From Escherichia coli (GTDB lineage: Bacteria > Pseudomonadota > Gammaproteobacteria > Enterobacterales > Enterobacteriaceae), in the NCBI RefSeq assembly GCF_030013205.1, contig NZ_CP122648.1: DNA of 64,000 nucleotides; one strand, written 5' to 3'. Positions 39,979-50,283 of this stretch are shown piece by piece. Within the stretch, counting starts at the first letter, position 1, and every line of letters starts with the position of its first letter. Made by a program: the position numbers and the translations under genes. The notes beneath the pieces are model-generated. The model was not told where the DNA came from. It was given only the letters and a program-made list of their open reading frames with translations, and did no database searches.

Positions 39979-42900
39979 TTACGCCTCCTCTTCATGGCGA
40001 GCAAAGCGACTTTTGGTCCACAATGCCAGGCGGTCGAATAGCAGATAAATCACCGGCGTGGTGAACAGCGTCAGCACCTGGCTGACAATCAGACCGCCGA
40101 CCATGCCGATACCTAACGGACGACGCAGTTCCGCGCCGACCCCGGTACTCAACATCAGCGGCAGCGCGCCAAGCAGAGCCGCCAGGGTGGTCATCAGGAT
40201 CGGACGAAAACGCAACAGACAAGCCTGGTAGATTGCATCGCGTGGCGACATGCCTTGCTCGCGCTCAGCAGCCAGCGCGAAGTCGATCATCATGATGGCG
40301 TTCTTCTTCACGATACCGATCAGCAAAATAATGCCGATAATTGCAATCACATCCAGTTCGCTACCGGCAATCATTAACGCCAGCAGTGCGCCAACACCTG
40401 CCGTGGGTAGCGTCGAGAGAATGGTGATCGGGTGAATAAAGCTCTCGTACAGAATGCCGAGCACGATATACATCGCCACCACCGCCGCGACAATCAGCCA
40501 GACAGTGCTGCCCAGCGCCGACTGGAAAGCGAGGGTGCTGCCCTGGAACTGCGTGGTGATATCCACCGGCAGATTCAGCGTCTTTTCGGTGTCCATAATC
40601 GCCTGCACCGCATCGCCCAGCGAATAGTTATCCGGCACGTTAAAGGAGATGGTCGTTACCGGGAACTGATCCAGATGGTTGATGGAAAGCGGCGCAAAAC
40701 GCTGCTCAATTTTGGCAATTGAGCTTAACGGCACCACTCCACCGTCGCTGCTGGTCAGGCGAATGGTATCCAGCGCCGCGAGGCCTGGGGTATTTTCGGT
40801 GTTGTGTTCCAGCACCACGCGATACTGGTTAGCCTGAGTATAAATAGTGGAAATCAGCCGCTGACCAAACGCGTTGTACAGGGCGTTATCGACATCCGCC
40901 ATGCTGATCCCCAGACGGCTGGCGCTGTCGCGATCAACATTGACATACGCCACCAGCCCTTTGTCCTGCCAGTCGCTGGAGACATCAGAAAGCTGTGGCA
41001 GTTGCTGGAGTTTTTCCATCAACTGTGGCACCCAGGTACTGAGCGCATCCAGTGACGTGGCCTGCAAGGTAAACTGGTACTGGGTGCGGCTGACCTGAGT
41101 ATCGATGGTCAGGTCCTGCGTTGGTTGCAAGAAGAGATCGACGCCCGGCACTTTATCCACCGCCGTTTGCAGACGGGCGATGACTTTTTGCACCCGATCA
41201 TCACGTTCATCCAACGGTTTGAGGTTGATCTGCAAACGCGCACTGTTCAGCGACGGGTTAGTGCCATCAACGCCAACAAACGAGGTCAGGCTTTGCACTG
41301 CCGGATCCTGCAAAATCACATCCGCGACCTGGCGTTGCCGCTGGGCCATATTGGCAAAGGAGCTGGATTGCGGTGCCTGCAAAGTGCCCTGAATAATGCC
41401 GTTGTCCTGTACCGGGAAGAAACCTTTCGGAATGAATACCCACAAGAGAACACTAAGCAGCAGCGTGCTGAGTGCCACGCTTAAGGTCAGCCACGGATGA
41501 TTCAGCACTTTCGCCAGTCCACGACCATAGGCGGCGATTATCCTGTCGAACATTTTCTCCGAGGCTCGGGAGAAGCGATTCTGTTTACGCAGCGACTCCT
41601 GGCTGAGCATCCGCGCGCACATCATCGGCGTCAGAGTCAGCGACACCACGGCTGAGATCAAAATCGCGACTGCCAGAGTAATAGCAAATTCGCGGAACAG
41701 TCGCCCGACGATATCGCCCATAAATAGCAGTGGGATCAACACTGCAATCAGTGAGAAGGTCAGCGAGATAATGGTAAAGCCGATTTCACCCGCGCCTTTG
41801 AGCGCCGCCGCCAACGGTTTTTCGCCTTTTTCGATATAGCGGGAAATGTTTTCGATCACCACGATGGCGTCATCGACCACAAATCCGGTGGCGATAGTTA
41901 ACGCCATCAGCGTCAGGTTATTGATTGAAAAATCGAGAAACACCATGACCGCGAAGGTGCCGATTAACGACAGCGGCACTGCGACGCCGGGAATGATGGT
42001 CGCCGGAATATTACGCAAAAACAGGTAGATAATCATGACTACCAGCGCGATAGCCATCATCAATTCAAACTGAGTATCATCGACGGATGCGCGAATATTG
42101 GTGGTACGGTCAGAAAGTACCGTCACTTTTACCGATTTCGGCAAACTCTCGGTGAGTTGTGGCAGCATCTGCCGGATGCTGTCGGCGGTGGAGATAATGT
42201 TAGCACCGGGCTGGCGCTGAACATTCATCACAATGGCCTGTTCTTTGTTCGCCCACGCGCCGAGCCAGCTGTTTTCTGCTCCTTGCTCTACGGTTGCGAC
42301 ATCGCCCAGACGAATCGGCGCGCCGTTCTGGTAGGCGATGATCAGCTGGCGATACTCTTCGGCGGATTGCATCTGGTCGTTCGCGGAAAGTGTGACCGCA
42401 CGGGAAGGGCCGTCGAGGCTACCTTTTGCCGAGTTAACGTTAGCGCCGGTAATAGCGGTGCGCACGGTTTCGCTGGTCAGGCCGAGGGCGGCAATCGCCT
42501 GGGCGTTAAGTTTGACACGAACAGCCGGACGCTGGCCGCCGGAAAGCGTCACCAGGCCGACACCGGAAATCTGCGAGATTTTCTGCGCGACGCGGGTTTC
42601 CACCATATCTTCCACTTGCGTCATTGGCATGGCGGTTGAGGTGACGGCGAGCGTCATGATTGGTGGATCTGCCGGGTTCACTTTGCTGTAAACCGGCGGG
42701 TTAGGCAGATCGCTCGGCAACAAGTTGGTCGCAGCGTTAATCGCGGCCTGCACTTCCTGCTCGGCGACATCGAGCGGTAATGTTAGCTGGAACTGTAAGG
42801 TGATAACTGACGCACCGCCGGAACTTTGCGACGACATCTGTTTCAGGCCAGACATCTGCCCAAACTGGCGTTCAAGCGGCGCGGTAACGGCAGAGGTCAT

Positions 42901-43101
42901 GACATCCGGGCTCGCACCTGGGTAGAGCGTGACTACCTGAATGGTTGGATAGTCCACTTCCGGCAGCGCCGAAACGGGCAGGGCGCGATAACCGATAATC
43001 CCGGCGAGTAAGATCGCCACCATCAGCAGCGTGGTGGCGACAGGACGCATAATAAACAGGCGCGACGGGCCGCCTGTGCTGCTCGAGGGTAACACCTGCA
43101 T
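39979..43101 (-). CDS. mdtB: RND multidrug efflux pump subunit
   Basis: 1040 aa RND transporter. Confidence 0.95.
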
Positions 43102-44348
43102 CAGGAGCGTGCTCCTTTTTTCGCGTATTCGCGGCTGGTGGCTTTCTCTTCCGAAGTGGTGGCGCTTTGAGCTTCAACCACTTCCACTTTCGCCCCTTCG
43201 GTCAGGCGATCAATTCCGTCCGTCACTACGCGGTCGCCCGCAGAAATACCTGCGCGGATCACCACTTTCTGACTGTCCTGAATGCCTGGCGTCACCAGAT
43301 GTTTGCTGACCTTGTTTTCGCTATTCAGCACCCAGACAAAATGGCCTTCATTGCCCATTTGCAGGGCGGCTGTTGGGATCACTACGGCGTTTTGTTCGGT
43401 GTCGACTAACATGCGCGCGTTAACAAACTGATTGGGAAACAGCGCATCATCCTGATTATTAAAGCGTGCTTTCACTTTAATCGTACCGGTTGTGGCATCG
43501 ATTTGGTTATCGAGGCTTAACAGCGTGCCTTCACTTAATTTCTTCGAGTTGGTGCGATCCCAGGCTTCTACCACCAGCGGTTTTCCGGCTTTTTGCGCCT
43601 GCACTACGGTAGCGATATCGCTTTCCGGCAGGGTAAAGAGCAAATCGATAGGATGCGTCTGGGTGATCACCACGATCCCGGTGGTATCACCACTGGAGAT
43701 TTGGTTACCAACATCAACCTGCTTGAGACCAACGCGACCATCGACTGGTGCGGTAATACGGCTCCAGTCGAGTTGCAGCTGTGCGCTGGCGACGCTTGCT
43801 TCATCTGCCTTAATGGTGCCTTCGGTTTCACTGACCAGCGCTTGTTGGGCATCCAGTTCCTGACGAGATACGAGATTGGTTTTTGCCAGTTGCTGATAAC
43901 GCGCCAGGTCACGGCGGGCGTTGGCAAGCGTGGCTTTATCTTTTGCCAGTTGGCCCTGGGCTTGTGCTAATGCAACTTTGAACTGGCTGGGGTCAATTTC
44001 TGCCAGTAAATCGCCTGCTTTGACCTGCTGGCCTTCCTGGAAATGTAACGCCATCAGTTGACCGTCCACGCGGCTGCGCACCGTAACGGTATTAGCGGCG
44101 GTAATGGTGCCAAGCCCGGTGAGATAACGTGGCACAGCTTGTTCTACGGCAGTCGCCGCCTGAACCGGGGCTAATGGGCCGGAACGCATACCACGGCGAC
44201 CACCCGCTGGCGATTGCTGCGCTTGTTTCGTCGCCCCTGGGGCTGCACTCCGGGAGTCATTGCGGCCTTGCCAGAACCAGAATGCGGCGATGGCGGCGAT
44301 AACCACCACGATTACGATTACCCAACGGGATTTATAACTGCCTTTCAT
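43101..44348 (-). CDS. mdtA: RND efflux membrane fusion (periplasmic adaptor) protein
   Basis: 415 aa from ATG 44348 ([16 protein letters not shown]…); ORF-track 464 aa is an upstream extension. Confidence 0.9.
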
Positions 44349-44577: not shown

Positions 44578-44717
44578 AAACGGGAAAGCCCCTCCCGAGG
44601 AAGGGGCCATAAATAAGGAAAGGGTCATGATGAAGCTACTCATCATCGTGGTGCTCTTAGTCATTAGCTGGCCAGCTTACTAAGACTACCAGGGCGGGGG
44701 AAACCCCGCTCTACCCT
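44578..44717 (-). ncRNA. sibB: Sib antisense sRNA (antitoxin) over ibs unit 1; boundaries approximate
   Basis: Minus-strand TTGACA-17-TACTTT promoter downstream of ibs stop; hairpin plus U-rich tract upstream of ibs start. Confidence 0.5.
44627..44683 (+). CDS. ibsB: Type I toxin Ibs (18 aa, MMKLLIIVVLLVISWPAY)
   Basis: Exact small hydrophobic ORF with tandem ATG. Confidence 0.8.
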   Translation: MMKLLIIVVLLVISWPAY

Positions 44718-44905
44718 CACTCCTGAAAGTATGCCTTCACGATAAGATTGTCAATCTGCAGGCTTTGCAGTCTGCGATCCTGCCAGCAAATATTCTTTGC
44801 GAGACGTTACGCAATAATCACACTGGAAACTATTTTATCCGCAAGTCAGCGATAGACTGCATTCAGGGCGAAAGGAGGTAAGCCGACGATTTCAGCGGGA
44901 CGCTG

Positions 44906-45045
44906 AAACGGGAAAGCCCCTCCCGAGGAAGGGGCCTTAAATAAGGAAAGGGTCATGATGAAGATACTCATCATCGTGGTGCTCTTAGTGATTAGCTACC
45001 CAGCATACTAAGACTACCAGGGCGGGGGAAACCCCGCTCTACCCT
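44906..45045 (-). ncRNA. Sib antisense sRNA over ibs unit 2; boundaries approximate
   Basis: Minus-strand TTGACA-17-TAATTT promoter; same architecture as unit 1. Confidence 0.5.
44955..45011 (+). CDS. Type I toxin Ibs variant (18 aa, MMKILIIVVLLVISYPAY)
   Basis: Middle repeat unit; differs from flanking Ibs peptides at L4I and W15Y. Confidence 0.75.
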   Translation: MMKILIIVVLLVISYPAY

Positions 45046-45234
45046 CACTCCTGAAATTATGCCTTCACGATAAGATTGTCAATCTGCAGGCTTTGCAGTC
45101 TGCGATCCCGCCAGCAAATATTCTTTGCGAGTCGTTACGCAATAATCACAGAGGAAACTATTTTGTTCACGCGTTAGCGATAGACTGCATTCAGGGCGAA
45201 AGGAGGTAAGCCGACGATTTCAGCGGGACGCTGA

Positions 45235-45374
45235 AACGGGAAACCCTCTCCCGGAGAAGAGGGCTTTTAATAAGGAAAGGGTTATGATGAAGCACGTCAT
45301 CATACTGGTGATACTCTTAGTGATTAGCTTCCAGGCTTACTAAGAACACCAGGGGGAGGGGGAAACCTCTCCCT
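45235..45374 (-). ncRNA. sibA: Sib antisense sRNA over ibs unit 3; boundaries approximate
   Basis: Minus-strand TTGACA-17-TAATTT promoter downstream of ibs stop. Confidence 0.5.
45284..45343 (+). CDS. ibsA: Type I toxin Ibs (19 aa, MMKHVIILVILLVISFQAY)
   Basis: Exact small hydrophobic ORF. Confidence 0.8.
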   Translation: MMKHVIILVILLVISFQAY

Positions 45375-45563
45375 AACCCTCACTCCTGAAATTATGTCAC
45401 TCCGCCCTTAGTGTCAATCGACGGCTCTTCGTTCTTGCGAGGCGAATAGCAAAATTTTCTGCGCCGCCGGGCCTAATTCTGAAAGTTTCTTCGTTTGCTC
45501 TTATTTCATTATTGCAATCGGTATGATACCGGACCTCAATAATTCTCTAAGAAAGGATTTCTT

Positions 45564-46223
45564 ATGAGCGAACAAATCACGTTTGCCACCAGCGATTTTG
45601 CCAGTAACCCGGAACCACGTTGCCCCTGCATTTTGTTGCTGGATGTTTCTGGCTCGATGAGCGGAAGACCTATTAATGAACTTAATGCCGGATTGGTTAC
45701 CTTTCGCGATGAGCTGCTTGCCGACCCGCTGGCCTTAAAAAGAGTGGAACTCGGCATTGTGACGTTCGGCCCGGTGCATGTGGAACAACCCTTTACCAGC
45801 GCCGCTAATTTTTTCCCGCCCATCCTGTTTGCCCAAGGCGATACACCAATGGGCGCTGCCATTACCAAAGCCCTGGATATGGTAGAGGAGCGCAAACGTG
45901 AGTATCGTGCAAATGGTATTTCGTATTATCGCCCGTGGATTTTCCTGATCACCGATGGCGCTCCAACCGATGAGTGGCAGGCTGCCGCCAACAAAGTGTT
46001 TCAGGGGGAAGAAGATAAGAAGTTTGCCTTCTTTTCCATCGGTGTTCAGGGGGCGGATATGAATACTTTGGCACAAATCAGCGTTCGTCAGCCTTTGCCA
46101 CTGCAGGGATTACAATTCCGTGAACTGTTTAGCTGGTTATCCAGTTCGCTGCGTTCGGTTTCCCGCTCCACGCCGGGAACGGAAGTTGTGCTGGAAGCGC
46201 CAAAAGGCTGGACGTCAGTGTGA
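45564..46223 (+). CDS. yegL: von Willebrand factor A (vWA) domain protein
   Basis: 219 aa; MIDAS-like DVSGSMSG motif. Confidence 0.85.
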
Positions 46224-46981
46224 GCTGGCGTCTGGTCTATGCATCAACCGTTGGAACGTCGCACATCAGCGCGGACTTGCCTTGCCAGGATGCCTGCCAG
46301 ATGCAGGTTGCCTGGTTAAATGACCAGCAGCCATTATTGTCGGTATTTGTCGCTGATGGCGCAGGCAGTGTCTCGCAGGGTGGCGAAGGCGCGATGCTCG
46401 CCGTCAATGAAGCGATGGCTTATATGTCGCAAAAAGTGCAGGGCGGGGAATTGGGGCTTAATGATGTCCTCGCCACGGATATTGTGCTGACCATTCGTCA
46501 GCGACTTTTTGCCGAGGCGGAAGCCAAAGAATTAGCGGTTCGCGATTTTGCCTGCACATTTCTGGGACTGATTTCATCGCCTGACGGCACCTTGATTATG
46601 CAGATTGGCGATGGCGGCGTGGTGGTAGATTTGGGGCACGGTCTGCAACTGCCGCTCACGCCGATGGTGGGTGAATATGCCAATATGACGCATTTCATTA
46701 GCGATAAAGATGCTGTTTCCAGACTGGAAACTTTCACCAGCACTGAGCGTGCGCATAAAGTTGCAGCATTTACGGATGGTATTCAGCGACTGGCGTTAAA
46801 TATGCTGGATAATTCTCCGCATGTGCCTTTCTTTACCCCGTTTTTCAATGGACTGGCGGCAGCAACGCAGGAACAACTCGATTTATTACCTGAATTGTTA
46901 AAGCAGTTTTTGTCCAGCCCGGCGGTAAACGAGCGTACCGATGATGATAAAACGTTGGCACTGGCGCTGTGGTTACCATGA
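46220..46981 (+). CDS. yegK: PP2C-family Ser/Thr protein phosphatase
   Basis: 253 aa; overlaps yegL stop and yegI start. Confidence 0.85.
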
Positions 46982-48918
46982 AACCCACTTTATATACTGC
47001 TACTGGTGAGTGCGTTACGCCAGGCCGTGAACTGGGCAAAGGTGGCGAAGGCGCGGTTTATGATATCGAGGAGTTTGCCGATAGCGTCGCCAAGATTTAT
47101 CACACGCCGCCACCCGCCTTAAAACAGGACAAACTTGCCTTTATGGCTGCGACAGCTGACGCACAGTTGCTGAATTATGTCGCCTGGCCGCAGGCAACGC
47201 TTCACGGTGGACGAGGCGGAAAAGTTATTGGTTTTATGATGCCAAAAGTTTCTGGTAAAGAACCGATTCATATGATCTATAGCCCGGCACATCGTCGTCA
47301 ACGTTACCCTCATTGTGCGTGGGATTTTCTACTCTATGTTGCGCGCAATATTGCTTCATCTTTTGCTACGGTTCACGAGCACGGGCATGTCGTGGGTGAC
47401 GTAAACCAGAACAGCTTTATGGTAGGCCGTGACAGCAAAGTGGTGTTGATTGATAGCGACTCCTTTCAGATTAACGCCAATGGCACGCTGCATTTATGCG
47501 AAGTCGGCGTGTCGCATTTTACGCCGCCAGAGCTGCAAACATTGCCATCATTTGTCGGTTTTGAACGTACCGCGAATCACGATAATTTTGGCCTTGCGTT
47601 GCTGATTTTTCACGTCTTGTTTGGTGGGCGGCATCCTTATTCCGGTGTACCGCTTATCTCTGATGCGGGTAATGCGCTGGAGACGGATATTGCCCATTTC
47701 CGTTATGCCTACGCGTCAGATAATCAGCGACGTGGTTTAAAACCGCCGCCACGATCGATTCCGCTGTCGATGTTACCGGGCGATGTTGAAGCCATGTTTC
47801 AGCAGGCATTCACGGAAAGTGGCGTGGCAACCGGGCGTCCGACGGCAAAAGCGTGGGTAGCGGCACTTGATTTACTACGCCAACAGTTAAAGAAATGTAC
47901 CGTTTCGGCAATGCATGTTTACCCCGCTCATTTGACTGACTGCCCGTGGTGTGCGCTGGATAATCAAGGCGTTATCTATTTTATTGATCTCGGCGAAGAG
48001 GTCATTACCACCGGCGGGAATTTTGTGCTGGCGAAAGTCTGGGCGATGGTGATGGCGTCAGTAGCACCGCCAGCATTGCAATTGCCATTACCCGATCATT
48101 TCCAGGCTGCTGGCAGGCCGCTTCCTTTAGGCCTGTTACGGCGCGAATACATCATTCTGATTGAGATCGCACTGTCAGCGTTATCGCTGTTGCTTTGCGG
48201 CCTTCAGGCAGAACCGCGTTATATCATTTTGGTTCCCATGCTGGCGGCTATCTGGATTATTGGCAGCCTGACAAGCAAAGCGTACAAAGCAGAAATCCAG
48301 CAACGCCGTGAGGCATTTAATCGCGCGAAAATGGACTATGACCATTTAGTCAGCCAGATCCAACAGTTGGGCGGGCTGGAAGGTTTTATCGCCAAACGGA
48401 CGATGCTCGAAAAAATGAAGGACGAAATTCTTGGGTTACCGGAAGAAGAAAAACGTGCTCTGGCAGCACTTCAGGACACCGCAAGGGAACGGCAGAAGCA
48501 GAAGTTTCTGGAGGGATTTTTTATTGATGTTGCCTCTATTCCCGGCGTTGGCCCTGCGCGTAAAGCTGCGTTACGGTCCTTTGGTATTGAAACGGCGGCA
48601 GACGTTACCCGACGGAGCGTTAAGCAAGTGAAAGGTTTTGGTGATCATCTGACCCAGGCGGTTATCGACTGGAAAGCGAGTTGCGAACGCCGTTTTGTTT
48701 TCAGGCCGAACGAAGCGGTAACGCCTGCAGACAGACAAGCGGTAATGGCAAAAATGGCCGCCAAACGACATCGGCTGGAATCGGCGCTGACTGTCGGTGC
48801 GACAGAGTTGCAGCGATTCCGCCTTCATGCTCCAGCACGGACCATGCCGTTGATGGAACCGTTACGTCAGGCGGCAGAAAAACTGGCTCAGGCGCAGGCT
48901 GATTTAAGCCGCTGCTGA
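46969..48918 (+). CDS. yegI: Ser/Thr protein kinase-like protein with C-terminal membrane/helical region
   Basis: 649 aa; kinase-like N-domain, hydrophobic segment, C-terminal helix-hairpin-helix-like region. Confidence 0.85.
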   Translation: MVTMKPTLYTATGECVTPGRELGKGGEGAVYDIEEFADSVAKIYHTPPPALKQDKLAFMAATADAQLLNYVAWPQATLHGGRGGKVIGFMMPKVSGKEPIHMIYSPAHRRQRYPHCAWDFLLYVARNIASSFATVHEHGHVVGDVNQNSFMVGRDSKVVLIDSDSFQINANGTLHLCEVGVSHFTPPELQTLPSFVGFERTANHDNFGLALLIFHVLFGGRHPYSGVPLISDAGNALETDIAHFRYAYASDNQRRGLKPPPRSIPLSMLPGDVEAMFQQAFTESGVATGRPTAKAWVAALDLLRQQLKKCTVSAMHVYPAHLTDCPWCALDNQGVIYFIDLGEEVITTGGNFVLAKVWAMVMASVAPPALQLPLPDHFQAAGRPLPLGLLRREYIILIEIALSALSLLLCGLQAEPRYIILVPMLAAIWIIGSLTSKAYKAEIQQRREAFNRAKMDYDHLVSQIQQLGGLEGFIAKRTMLEKMKDEILGLPEEEKRALAALQDTARERQKQKFLEGFFIDVASIPGVGPARKAALRSFGIETAADVTRRSVKQVKGFGDHLTQAVIDWKASCERRFVFRPNEAVTPADRQAVMAKMAAKRHRLESALTVGATELQRFRLHAPARTMPLMEPLRQAAEKLAQAQADLSRC

Positions 48919-48930
48919 GCCATTTTTCAA

Positions 48931-50283
48931 TTAACGAAACACCACTTCCGCCCAGCGTGCCAGCCCGGCGGTGACGGAGCCAAAGTCATCGCCGCCTGCA
49001 ATCGGAATGCCCGGCAACTGTTCTGCCAGCGCTTTTTTAATCAGCGGCGAACGGGCGCTACCGCCGGTCAGGTAGATGACATCCGGTTTTTCCTGGGCGT
49101 TATCCAGGGCCAGTTGCACCTGTTCCAGAATCCGCATCAGTGGCTGGTTGAGGGCGCTTTCCAGCCCTTGCTGGCTAATCAGCGTAGCCAGTTCATCGCT
49201 GATAAACGGCAGTGAGGCGCGGGTTTCCGCTACGCTTGAAAGCGCAATTTTGCTCTCTTCTGCGCTACGTACCAGGCGATAGCTTAAACGCTGACGCCAG
49301 ACTTTCTGTAACAGGGCCACTTTTTCCGGTTCGCGGGCATCGCGTACCAGATCGTTAAGCAGACGACCGTTGGCACTACTGTAGAAATCACTTTGCGCAG
49401 GTACGTCGTTGATGGCAACCGCATTCCACCACGGCAGAATCGGCAGGGCGATGCCTTTTTCGGTTTCGCCCCCCATGCCCAGTAACGGCATCAGGTTTTT
49501 AAACGCCAGTGCGATATCCAGATCGTTACCGCCAATACGGCAACCACTGTGACCCAGCAGGCTGGCTTCACGATCGAGACGCGAACGCCACTGCGGCCCC
49601 ATCAGCAGCAATGAACAGTCAGTCGTACCACCGCCGATATCCACCACCAGCACCCGTTTTTCTTCCTGCAAAGTCGCTTCGTAATCCAGCCCTGCCGCTA
49701 CCGGCTCGTACTGGAATACCACATCCTTAAACCCGGCACGCTTCGCCGCGCGTTCCAGAATCCCCTGCGCCTGGGTGTTTGCTTCATCGCCGCCAAGCCC
49801 CTGGAAGTTGATCGGGCGACCAATCACTGCCTGAGTAATTGCCTCCGGCAGTTGAGCCTGCGCCTGCTGGCGAATGTGCAACATCATTGCGCAGACCAGA
49901 TCCTCAAACAGCGCTACCTGCTGCGGTTTTAAGCCGCTGGCACCGAGGAACGATTTTGGTGATTTCACAAACCACACTTCTTCTGGATCATCAATGTACT
50001 GTGCCAGTGAGGAAAGACCGAACTGCACGCTTTTCGCCGTAACATCGATATCTTCTTCGCGGTTATAACGAATCGCCCGACGCAACAGCGCCTGCGTTTC
50101 ATCGTCGTCTGCCGGAACATCATGATGGCGGTACAGCCATTCGCTTACCGCTTCACGCGTTGGCGCGCAAAGCATTGAAGGCAGCAGCGTGCTGTCGTTT
50201 TCCATTTTCAGTAATTGCGGCTTACCGTCGCGCATGACCGCCACTGAACAGTTTGCTGTACCGTAATCAAAACCAATAAACAC
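48931..50283 (-). CDS. yegD: Hsp70-family (actin-like ATPase) chaperone-like protein
   Basis: 450 aa from GTG 50283 (VFIGFDYGTANCSVAV…); ORF-track version is an upstream extension. Confidence 0.85.
   Translation of the reverse strand: MFIGFDYGTANCSVAVMRDGKPQLLKMENDSTLLPSMLCAPTREAVSEWLYRHHDVPADDDETQALLRRAIRYNREEDIDVTAKSVQFGLSSLAQYIDDPEEVWFVKSPKSFLGASGLKPQQVALFEDLVCAMMLHIRQQAQAQLPEAITQAVIGRPINFQGLGGDEANTQAQGILERAAKRAGFKDVVFQYEPVAAGLDYEATLQEEKRVLVVDIGGGTTDCSLLLMGPQWRSRLDREASLLGHSGCRIGGNDLDIALAFKNLMPLLGMGGETEKGIALPILPWWNAVAINDVPAQSDFYSSANGRLLNDLVRDAREPEKVALLQKVWRQRLSYRLVRSAEESKIALSSVAETRASLPFISDELATLISQQGLESALNQPLMRILEQVQLALDNAQEKPDVIYLTGGSARSPLIKKALAEQLPGIPIAGGDDFGSVTAGLARWAEVVFR

Follow-up and report, generated by a model that had tools for sequence, protein, structure and literature searches.

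Within a 64,000-nucleotide (nt) stretch of Escherichia coli DNA (NCBI RefSeq assembly GCF_030013205.1, contig NZ_CP122648.1; hereafter, the window), three co-directional plus-strand open reading frames (ORFs) at positions 45564–48918 correspond to yegL, pphC (also yegK), and yegI, which encode a von Willebrand factor A (vWA) protein, a PP2C-type Ser/Thr phosphatase, and an atypical Ser/Thr kinase, respectively. By its architecture, yegL-pphC-yegI is a TerY-P (TerY-phosphorylation) triad, an arrangement reportedly described by Anantharaman, Iyer, and Aravind in 2012 together with a metal-sensing proposal. We propose that this triad (hereafter also yegLKI) is a phosphorylation-switch cassette that was captured by an ancestor of Escherichia and kept by purifying selection, with a role in surveillance or conflict (i.e., defence against phages or mobile elements, or DNA-linked growth arrest). 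We assign this reading a probability of about 45%, which ranks it as the most likely role; a dedicated housekeeping pathway is less likely. The locus itself is already known, annotated, and partly characterised, and YegI and PphC are the only Hanks-type kinase/PP2C pair described in E. coli. The initial annotation of this DNA had likewise called it a known locus of poorly defined function, in agreement with the literature: two papers address its biochemistry, and a paper from May 2026 (PMC13232886) still calls the pathway unknown.

Insertion of the triad in Escherichia

In Salmonella enterica and Citrobacter freundii, the gene order is dgcE-alkA-yegD-ibs-mdtABC with nothing between yegD and ibs, and homology between these genomes and the window ends at 45400 and 48931. 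The intervening 3.5 kb (45401–48930) is an Escherichia-specific insertion between yegD and the sib/ibs-mdtA region. The nearest YegI outside Escherichia is 63% identical and lies in a different genomic context, and a genome-contig search with the single YegI protein found Escherichia loci only. Among 5426 complete E. coli genomes, a 3.6-kb triad query was present in 5416, nearly always once and on the chromosome, and the reading frames were intact (≥80% coverage) in 5402; strain 19-5 is an example of a natural isolate lacking the locus. The previous description of the locus as backbone rather than island thus holds for its distribution in E. coli but not for its origin, given that the triad is an insertion that is missing between yegD and ibs in Salmonella and Citrobacter. 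Comparisons between Escherichia species and clades gave ratios of non-synonymous to synonymous substitution (dN/dS) of 0.02–0.07 for yegL, 0.14–0.22 for pphC, and 0.09 for yegI, and the synonymous divergence (dS) of the triad genes (0.15–0.34) fell in the same range as that of the flanking mdtA, yegD, and alkA. The low dN/dS and flank-like dS therefore argue that the triad has been vertically inherited under purifying selection.

Adjacent genes of the triad overlap by four bases at their stop and start codons (Table 1). Because four-base overlaps are common in bacterial operons, the overlap by itself is unremarkable; what goes beyond chance is the persistence of the gene order and of tight junctions in relatives down to 35% identity, with the same 4-nt overlap at the vWA/PP2C junction in the loci L002, L003, L004, L008, L017, and L020. 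A Shine-Dalgarno sequence (AAGAAAGGA) precedes yegL at 45549–45557, and translational coupling of the triad genes is plausible because inspection of the sequence revealed no good Shine-Dalgarno sequence ahead of pphC or yegI. A consensus scan of 45401–45563 detected no sigma-70-like promoter, nor was a conserved promoter or operator found upstream of yegL across cassettes, whose upstream regions are not alike.

The gene identities and stop/start overlaps proposed initially match the ORF list, Pfam, the raw sequence, and the RefSeq annotation of the chromosome of E. coli K_EC180 (from swine), which is 100% identical here and contains yegL, pphC, and yegI, the last starting with the ATG at 46978. 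The N-termini of homologues also line up with the annotated starts of the cassette genes. The overlap of all three genes is found in this window, in which yegJ is absent from the pphC/yegI junction, but is not general, because yegJ sits at this junction in 1906–1934 of the 5426 complete genomes (~35%; K-12-like example at L025:3083–3807). The ATGA overlap of pphC and yegI was noted for the B strain REL606 and for O157:H7, and the yegJ insertion for K-12 (Rajagopalan & Dworkin 2020; 10.1101/819920). Given the number of genomes with yegJ, the insertion is not confined to K-12, unlike the 'K strains only' of the literature.

Between mdtA and yegL, we identified three tandem Sib/Ibs type I toxin-antitoxin units (Rfam SIB_RNA, 140–150 bits each). 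A K-12-like strain contains two such units at this site, and Salmonella and Citrobacter contain one each, showing that the array grew beside the triad insertion point.

Architecture of YegL, PphC, and YegI

YegL matched Pfam VWA (E = 7e-10), and its metal ion-dependent adhesion site (MIDAS) is intact, with D27-x-S29-x-S31, T94, and D131 all invariant in the family alignment. The family is highly conserved, including an invariant N-terminal NPEPR peptide that is disordered in the AlphaFold2 (AF2) model and a last helix and tail that are rich in Ser and likewise invariant (aa 185–202, including the 12-residue segment at aa 191–202; alignment and AF2 model). The AF2 model (pLDDT [predicted local distance difference test score] 85.8) has a standard vWA fold and is nearest to CMG2/TEM8 and integrin I/vWA domains (Foldseek, E about 1e-9). 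Compared to three TerY-type vWA genes from ter clusters of IncHI2 and Klebsiella plasmids, YegL gave E-values of 1e-11 to 1e-17 at 29–37% identity (tblastn). The match to the PADLOC hidden Markov model of TerY reached only E = 0.009 (13.5 bits), which places YegL as a distant member of the TerY clade; among the matches listed in a homologue search, there were E. coli variants only and no TerY names. On these comparisons, YegL is best classed as a TerY-type vWA protein with an intact MIDAS.

PphC matched Pfam PP2C_2 (PF13672; E = 2.7e-52), with D24, D46-G-A-G-S, D131, D186, and TDDDK (240–244) invariant in the alignment, and found no match among the PADLOC models. The enzyme is an Mn2+-dependent PP2C that loses its activity with a D46N change and dephosphorylates YegI in vitro (Rajagopalan & Dworkin 2018; 10.1101/303594). 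This essential D46 is kept in the window, as are all residues published as essential in YegI (K39, D141, D159-S-D161, and S162). In E. coli strain E69 (L015), pphC is 81% identical to that of the window with 10 gaps, and yegL and yegI are 93–94% identical; the divergence may mean that only the phosphatase gene has decayed or been replaced by another allele.

YegI is an atypical Hanks-type Ser/Thr kinase. In an alignment of 23 sequences (56–91% identity), the kinase motifs were present and invariant (GKGGEG loop at 20–25, K39, D141, D159, and PPE at 183–185), together with the non-canonical VGD141 in place of HRD and DSD159–161 in place of DFG; YegI also has Ser in place of the catalytic-loop Asn. 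The first 347 residues had no Pfam match even at E ≤1. Relatives matching YegI at E ≤1e-110 reach 35.9–40.1 bits against Pfam Pkinase (cut-off 31.7), so that YegI is homologous to the Pkinase profile by transitivity. Relatives with other C-terminal additions (TPR, SH3_3) also occur, and they exceed this cut-off. YegI is active in vitro as a Ser kinase that prefers Mn2+, needs K39, D141, the DSD motif, and S162, and is inactivated by changing DSD to DFG; its autophosphorylation is second order, read by the authors as dimer formation, and the PhoA-LacZ topology in the same paper shows that the protein crosses the inner membrane twice, with both of its ends cytoplasmic (10.1101/819920). Sequence searches of the PDB returned no relative for YegL, PphC, YegI, or the YegI profile.

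Just after the kinase domain lies a Cys/His motif that is a candidate zinc-ribbon-like element; all 23 sequences share its residues C307, H313, C322, and C325, and conservation of H318 among them is 90% or higher. Beyond the membrane hairpin, the AF2 model of aa 436–646 (pLDDT 93.6) shows long helices around a small globular domain. Generic coiled coils dominate the Foldseek matches of this model, and only local matches to the N-terminal domains of Rad51 and Dmc1 were informative (probability 0.96, E-values 0.8–0.9). YegI also matched the helix-hairpin-helix (HhH) family HHH_5 of Pfam with E = 6e-5, under the gathering score, and the two HhH hairpins (GVG and GFG) are conserved in the alignment. 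As modelled, this (HhH)2 domain is probably a DNA-binding head carried on the stalk.

Cassettes outside Escherichia and relation to known systems

At E ≤1e-30, relatives of YegI fall into 3224 clusters (50% identity); among the 150 best-scoring clusters listed, the majority are full length (640–655 aa). Using exact-protein look-ups and a plasmid search, we obtained nine independent chromosomal or metagenomic contexts beyond Escherichia, plus two megaplasmids (Table 1); the cassette is also found on Cupriavidus, Ralstonia, and rhizobial megaplasmids. Every context fetched contains a vWA protein (~220 aa), a PP2C (~250 aa), and a kinase (~645 aa) in the same order, joined in nearly all cases by a 4-nt overlap or a gap of ≤10 nt, whereas the flanking genes differ between all contexts. 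Because order, sizes, and junctions are constant while the flanks change, yegL-pphC-yegI appears to be a self-contained mobile cassette. Phage records and viral contigs contain essentially no copies of the triad, and the cassette is therefore not phage-borne.

Recognised defence genes were found within 8 kb of the cassette in five of the nine independent contexts (a raw count with no background rate), in line with the earlier statement that triads of this kind are found repeatedly close to conflict systems. Type I restriction-modification (RM), Nhi/AbiO-like, and staphylococcal-nuclease (SNase)-type neighbours were confirmed by PADLOC models in a scan of 96 neighbouring proteins, in which redundant type I models came out on top and left no clean per-gene count; the other neighbours were named from precomputed Pfam hits.

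Several further genes accompany the cassette (Table 1). In pQBR103-like Pseudomonas megaplasmids, an S24 peptidase and Y-family polymerase (umuDC-like) pair lies directly upstream of the triad. A basic, highly conserved protein of 67–70 aa (MKFGMR..APRGWGWLTNPK..AAYNRVY..) adjoins the triad in four contexts that are unrelated to one another; it matches nothing in Pfam, and E. coli lacks it. Its identification as a fragment of DUF4236 was rejected on comparison, and in some cassettes it may serve as an accessory component. Between this protein and the vWA gene, two contexts encode SNase-like proteins with signal peptides, which, being secreted, are unlikely to be cytoplasmic effectors. A DUF4236 protein is present near the triad in L009–L011 and another in an IncHI2 ter/TerY cluster, making DUF4236 a second element common to YegL-type and TerY-type neighbourhoods.

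Compared to TerY-P triads, some copies of which are embedded in Type II/III-A CoCoNuT systems, yegLKI shows the same linkage of genes for a TerY-like vWA protein, a PP2C, and a C-terminally extended Ser/Thr kinase, the same mobility, and the same association with restriction genes, and the Cys/His motif of YegI, a candidate zinc-ribbon-like element, sits where CoCoNuT-type kinases carry a zinc ribbon. The differences are that YegI has, in addition, a membrane hairpin and a predicted (HhH)2 domain borne on a coiled-coil stalk, that no ter, McrBC, or CoCoNuT genes lie near yegLKI, and that the E. coli copy is core-genomic. The TerY-P of Gao et al. 2020, a stand-alone cassette reported to be active against T7-like phages, follows the same three-component logic, but its kinase ends in an oligonucleotide/oligosaccharide-binding (OB) fold, whereas YegI ends in a coiled coil and HhH. 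YegI had no match to the PADLOC model STK_OB, and one relative reached only E = 0.0026. Given marginal or no matches to TerY and STK_OB and the lack of an OB fold, yegLKI lies outside the TerY-P family of Gao et al. 2020 and PADLOC.

The pairs PknB-PstP and PrkC-PrpC resemble the triad in having an adjacent, co-transcribed kinase and PP2C, with trans-autophosphorylation of the activation loop that is reset by the phosphatase. In contrast to these kinases, YegI lacks an extracellular sensor domain (PASTA is absent), carries VGD and DSD for HRD and DFG, is missed by Pfam Pkinase, and has an obligatory vWA partner, and yegLKI is mobile and patchily distributed, unlike a housekeeping pair found throughout a lineage. 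The PADLOC model nearest to the YegI kinase domain is PD-T4-6 (E = 2e-4 for YegI, 1.4e-8 for a relative), a likeness at the level of the fold only, and the kinase-kinase-phosphatase (KKP) system of Pf prophages provides a precedent for a kinase-phosphatase switch that controls phage defence; both differ from yegLKI in domain architecture and have no vWA partner. DRA0331–0334 of Deinococcus radiodurans combine vWA, Ser/Thr kinase, and PP2C genes in one operon, but in a different order, with an extra FHA protein and with the PP2C fused to a KI-FHA domain. According to a preprint, the phosphatase and FHA protein of that operon act on the radiation-responsive kinase RqkA.

Table 1 Features of the triad region in the window, and cassette contexts and accompanying genes in other genomes (L numbers denote loci).
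Feature	Location	Strand	Description	Basis
yegL	45564–46223	+	219 aa, TerY-type vWA protein	Pfam VWA, RefSeq, alignment, AF2 model
pphC (yegK)	46220–46981	+	253 aa, GTG start, PP2C-type Ser/Thr phosphatase	Pfam PP2C_2
yegI	46978–48918	+	646 aa from ATG, atypical Ser/Thr kinase	ORF list (starts 46969/46978)
yegL/pphC overlap GTGA	46220–46223	+	pphC GTG start and yegL TGA stop	Raw sequence
pphC/yegI overlap ATGA	46978–46981	+	yegI ATG start and pphC TGA stop	Raw sequence
yegI kinase domain	46978–47877	+	~aa 1–300, atypical Hanks-type fold	Residues, alignment, published mutagenesis
yegI Cys/His motif	47896–47952	+	C307-x5-H313-x4-H318-x3-C322-P-W-C325, just after kinase domain	
yegI membrane hairpin	48142–48282	+	Hydrophobic segments ~aa 391–409 and 415–433, QAEPR between	Hydropathy
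yegI C-terminal cytoplasmic module	48283–48918	+	aa 436–646, coiled-coil stalk carrying predicted (HhH)2 domain	
yegI predicted (HhH)2 domain	48514–48717	+	~aa 513–580	
Upstream non-coding region	45401–45563	+	Cassette-specific	Salmonella/Citrobacter homology stops at 45400
yegD	48931–50283	-	Hsp70/actin-fold ATPase; convergent, 12 nt past yegI stop; outside cassette	NCBIfam PRK11678 (E = 3.5e-244), Pfam HSP70
SIB RNAs (three)	44612–44754, 44940–45082, 45269–45417	-		Rfam SIB_RNA
ibs ORFs (three)	~44628–44684, 44956–45012, 45285–45344	+	Within Sib units	
L002	Piscinibacter		Neighbours: BrxR, JetB, SLFN-type helicase matching Nhi and AbiO models, McrA-like, MazG-like, NYN	
L003	Chromobacterium		Neighbours: AbiH, KAP NTPase, adjoining Tn7-like transposon	
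L004	Klebsiella spallanzanii		Neighbours: GmrSD, type I RM, SymE, BrnA	
L006, L009	Metagenomes			
L008	Metagenome		Neighbours: type I RM directly downstream, Mrr	
L017, L018	More distant members		35–43% identity	
L020	More distant member		35–43% identity; neighbours: GmrSD, type I RM, Abi_C	
L022, L023	Pseudomonas megaplasmids			
umuDC-like pair	L022:4617–6315, L023:5119–6820		S24 peptidase and Y-family polymerase	
67–70-aa protein	L002:5719–5928, L008:6075–6284, L009:5700–5912, L017:5674–5877		Upstream of triad in three, downstream in one	
SNase-like proteins	L002:5932–6474, L009:5917–6501, L009:10709–11224			Match PADLOC candidate model C3a212 (SNc+LTD)
DUF4236 protein near triad	L009:1962–3182			
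DUF4236 protein in IncHI2 ter/TerY cluster	L024:4812–6020			

Proposed role and competing explanations

In the mechanism that we propose, YegI would be tethered by its membrane hairpin and would hold the Rad51-like (HhH)2 domain on the cytoplasmic coiled-coil stalk, so that this head could bind DNA near the inner membrane, either phage or plasmid DNA that enters the cell or chromosomal DNA that is damaged or stalled. PphC strips the phosphates from YegI in vitro and so keeps the switch off, and binding to DNA would cluster YegI molecules until trans-autophosphorylation outweighs PphC. YegL may be the kinase substrate or an adaptor, acting through its MIDAS, N-terminal peptide, and Ser-rich C-terminal helix, and would relay the signal to targets.

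Several observations weigh against a surveillance or conflict role. The E. coli triad is fixed at one site and vertically inherited, and because defence genes usually vary between strains, a fixed copy is atypical. The cassette contains no recognisable effector (nuclease, pore, or NADase), and none of YegL, PphC, and YegI has a convincing match among PADLOC defence models. The association with defence genes, as a raw count without a background rate, is suggestive, and two of the nine contexts (L006 and L018) have no defence genes in view. No phage, plasmid, or stress phenotype of yegLKI is reported in the literature searched, and expression of the triad is barely detectable in the laboratory (10.1101/303594; 10.1101/819920; PMC13232886). 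A DNA-linked output speaks in favour of this role: in a genome-wide overproduction screen, YegL ('strong') and YegI (5-fold or more) both belong to the 208 proteins found to increase DNA damage/SOS. However, the list also includes MdtA and MdtB, encoded next to the triad (mdtB and mdtA, 39979–44348), so the phenotype may be a non-specific class effect of membrane proteins (Xia et al.; 10.1101/354589).

A broader version of the surveillance reading is more tentative still, and we consider it somewhat unlikely. According to this version, YegLKI-type cassettes would be a large, stand-alone immune or conflict family (>3000 clusters at 50% identity), missed by catalogues and distinct from the TerY-P of Gao et al. 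and PADLOC, in which the stalk-borne (HhH)2 domain of the membrane-tethered atypical kinase detects incoming DNA at the inner membrane, the PP2C sets the threshold, and the TerY-type vWA protein relays to a DNA-damaging or growth-arresting output; the copy present in almost all E. coli genomes would be domesticated.

The best-surviving rival holds that the triad is a DNA-damage or replication-stress module rather than an immune one, in which the HhH-bearing YegI would detect DNA that is damaged or single-stranded and phosphorylate proteins of repair or replication, with PphC resetting the system and YegL serving as a scaffold. Its main contextual support is the position of the triad directly downstream of the umuDC-like pair on Pseudomonas megaplasmids, to which a LexA gene and a DinB_2 gene within 7 kb of the cassette in L006 can be added. 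The SOS/DNA damage induced by overproduced YegL and YegI (10.1101/354589), the likeness of the YegI HhH to the N-terminal DNA-binding domain of Rad51/Dmc1, and the action of the Deinococcus vWA-kinase-FHA-PP2C operon on radiation-responsive RqkA (a 'DNA-damage sensor' in the title of the preprint) point the same way, and fixed vertical inheritance in Escherichia would suit a domesticated stress function. However, the insertion by itself accounts for the closeness of alkA to the triad in E. coli, since alkA-yegD is ancestral, and most other contexts carry restriction or abortive-infection genes rather than repair genes. Moreover, a membrane tether would be unexpected in a sensor of chromosome damage, and no DNA-damage sensitivity of mutants is reported. 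We regard this explanation as unlikely, though well ahead of those that follow.

It is improbable that the triad is a sensor of metal or tellurite-type chemical stress, in which the MIDAS of YegL would read metal availability and gate the kinase/phosphatase switch. In most vWA proteins, the MIDAS uses metal to bind a protein ligand, as in integrin I-domains, rather than to sense metal, which counts against this explanation, as do the absence, across all contexts fetched, of linked ter genes and metal transporters and the lack of any role for the HhH stalk. In its favour are the homology of YegL to the TerY vWA proteins of ter clusters, with the MIDAS intact, the preference of both YegI and PphC for Mn2+, and the metal-sensing hypothesis for TerY-P as summarised in the CoCoNuT paper.

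The initial annotation had also implied a partnership with the Hsp70-like YegD, and a four-gene unit would be consistent with the close convergent arrangement of yegI and yegD (12 nt apart) and with the increase of yegD mRNA upon yegJ overexpression in K-12 (PMC13232886). Nonetheless, Salmonella and Citrobacter have a YegD of 88–90% identity, encoded at the corresponding position with no triad beside it, showing that yegD predates the triad; no Hsp70-family gene adjoins the triad in the nine chromosomal or metagenomic contexts, the two megaplasmids, or the other loci fetched; and convergent genes are not co-transcribed. Because yegD is older than the triad and never beside it outside Escherichia, we rejected this highly improbable partnership. 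Least credible of all, and also rejected, is that the triad is a silent remnant in decay that no longer has a function, an explanation suggested by the lack of robustly detected expression, the absence of a sigma-70-like promoter upstream, and the splitting of the operon by yegJ in ~35% of E. coli genomes, but strongly disfavoured by dN/dS of 0.02–0.2 across Escherichia species at dS of 0.15–0.34, intact frames in 5402 of 5426 genomes, retention of all catalytic residues, and the activity of both enzymes in vitro.

New to this locus are the boundaries of the insertion, the mobility of the cassette and its company in defence islands, the exclusion of yegD from the unit, the relationship of YegL to TerY, the stalk-plus-HhH anatomy predicted for YegI, and the link to the DNA-damage screen. 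These additions sharpen the open functional question of yegLKI without answering it. Since yegJ splits the operon of K-12, the strain usually chosen for tests, work in K-12 tests a disrupted operon. If the defence reading is true, almost all E. coli would contain an immune module missing from current catalogues.

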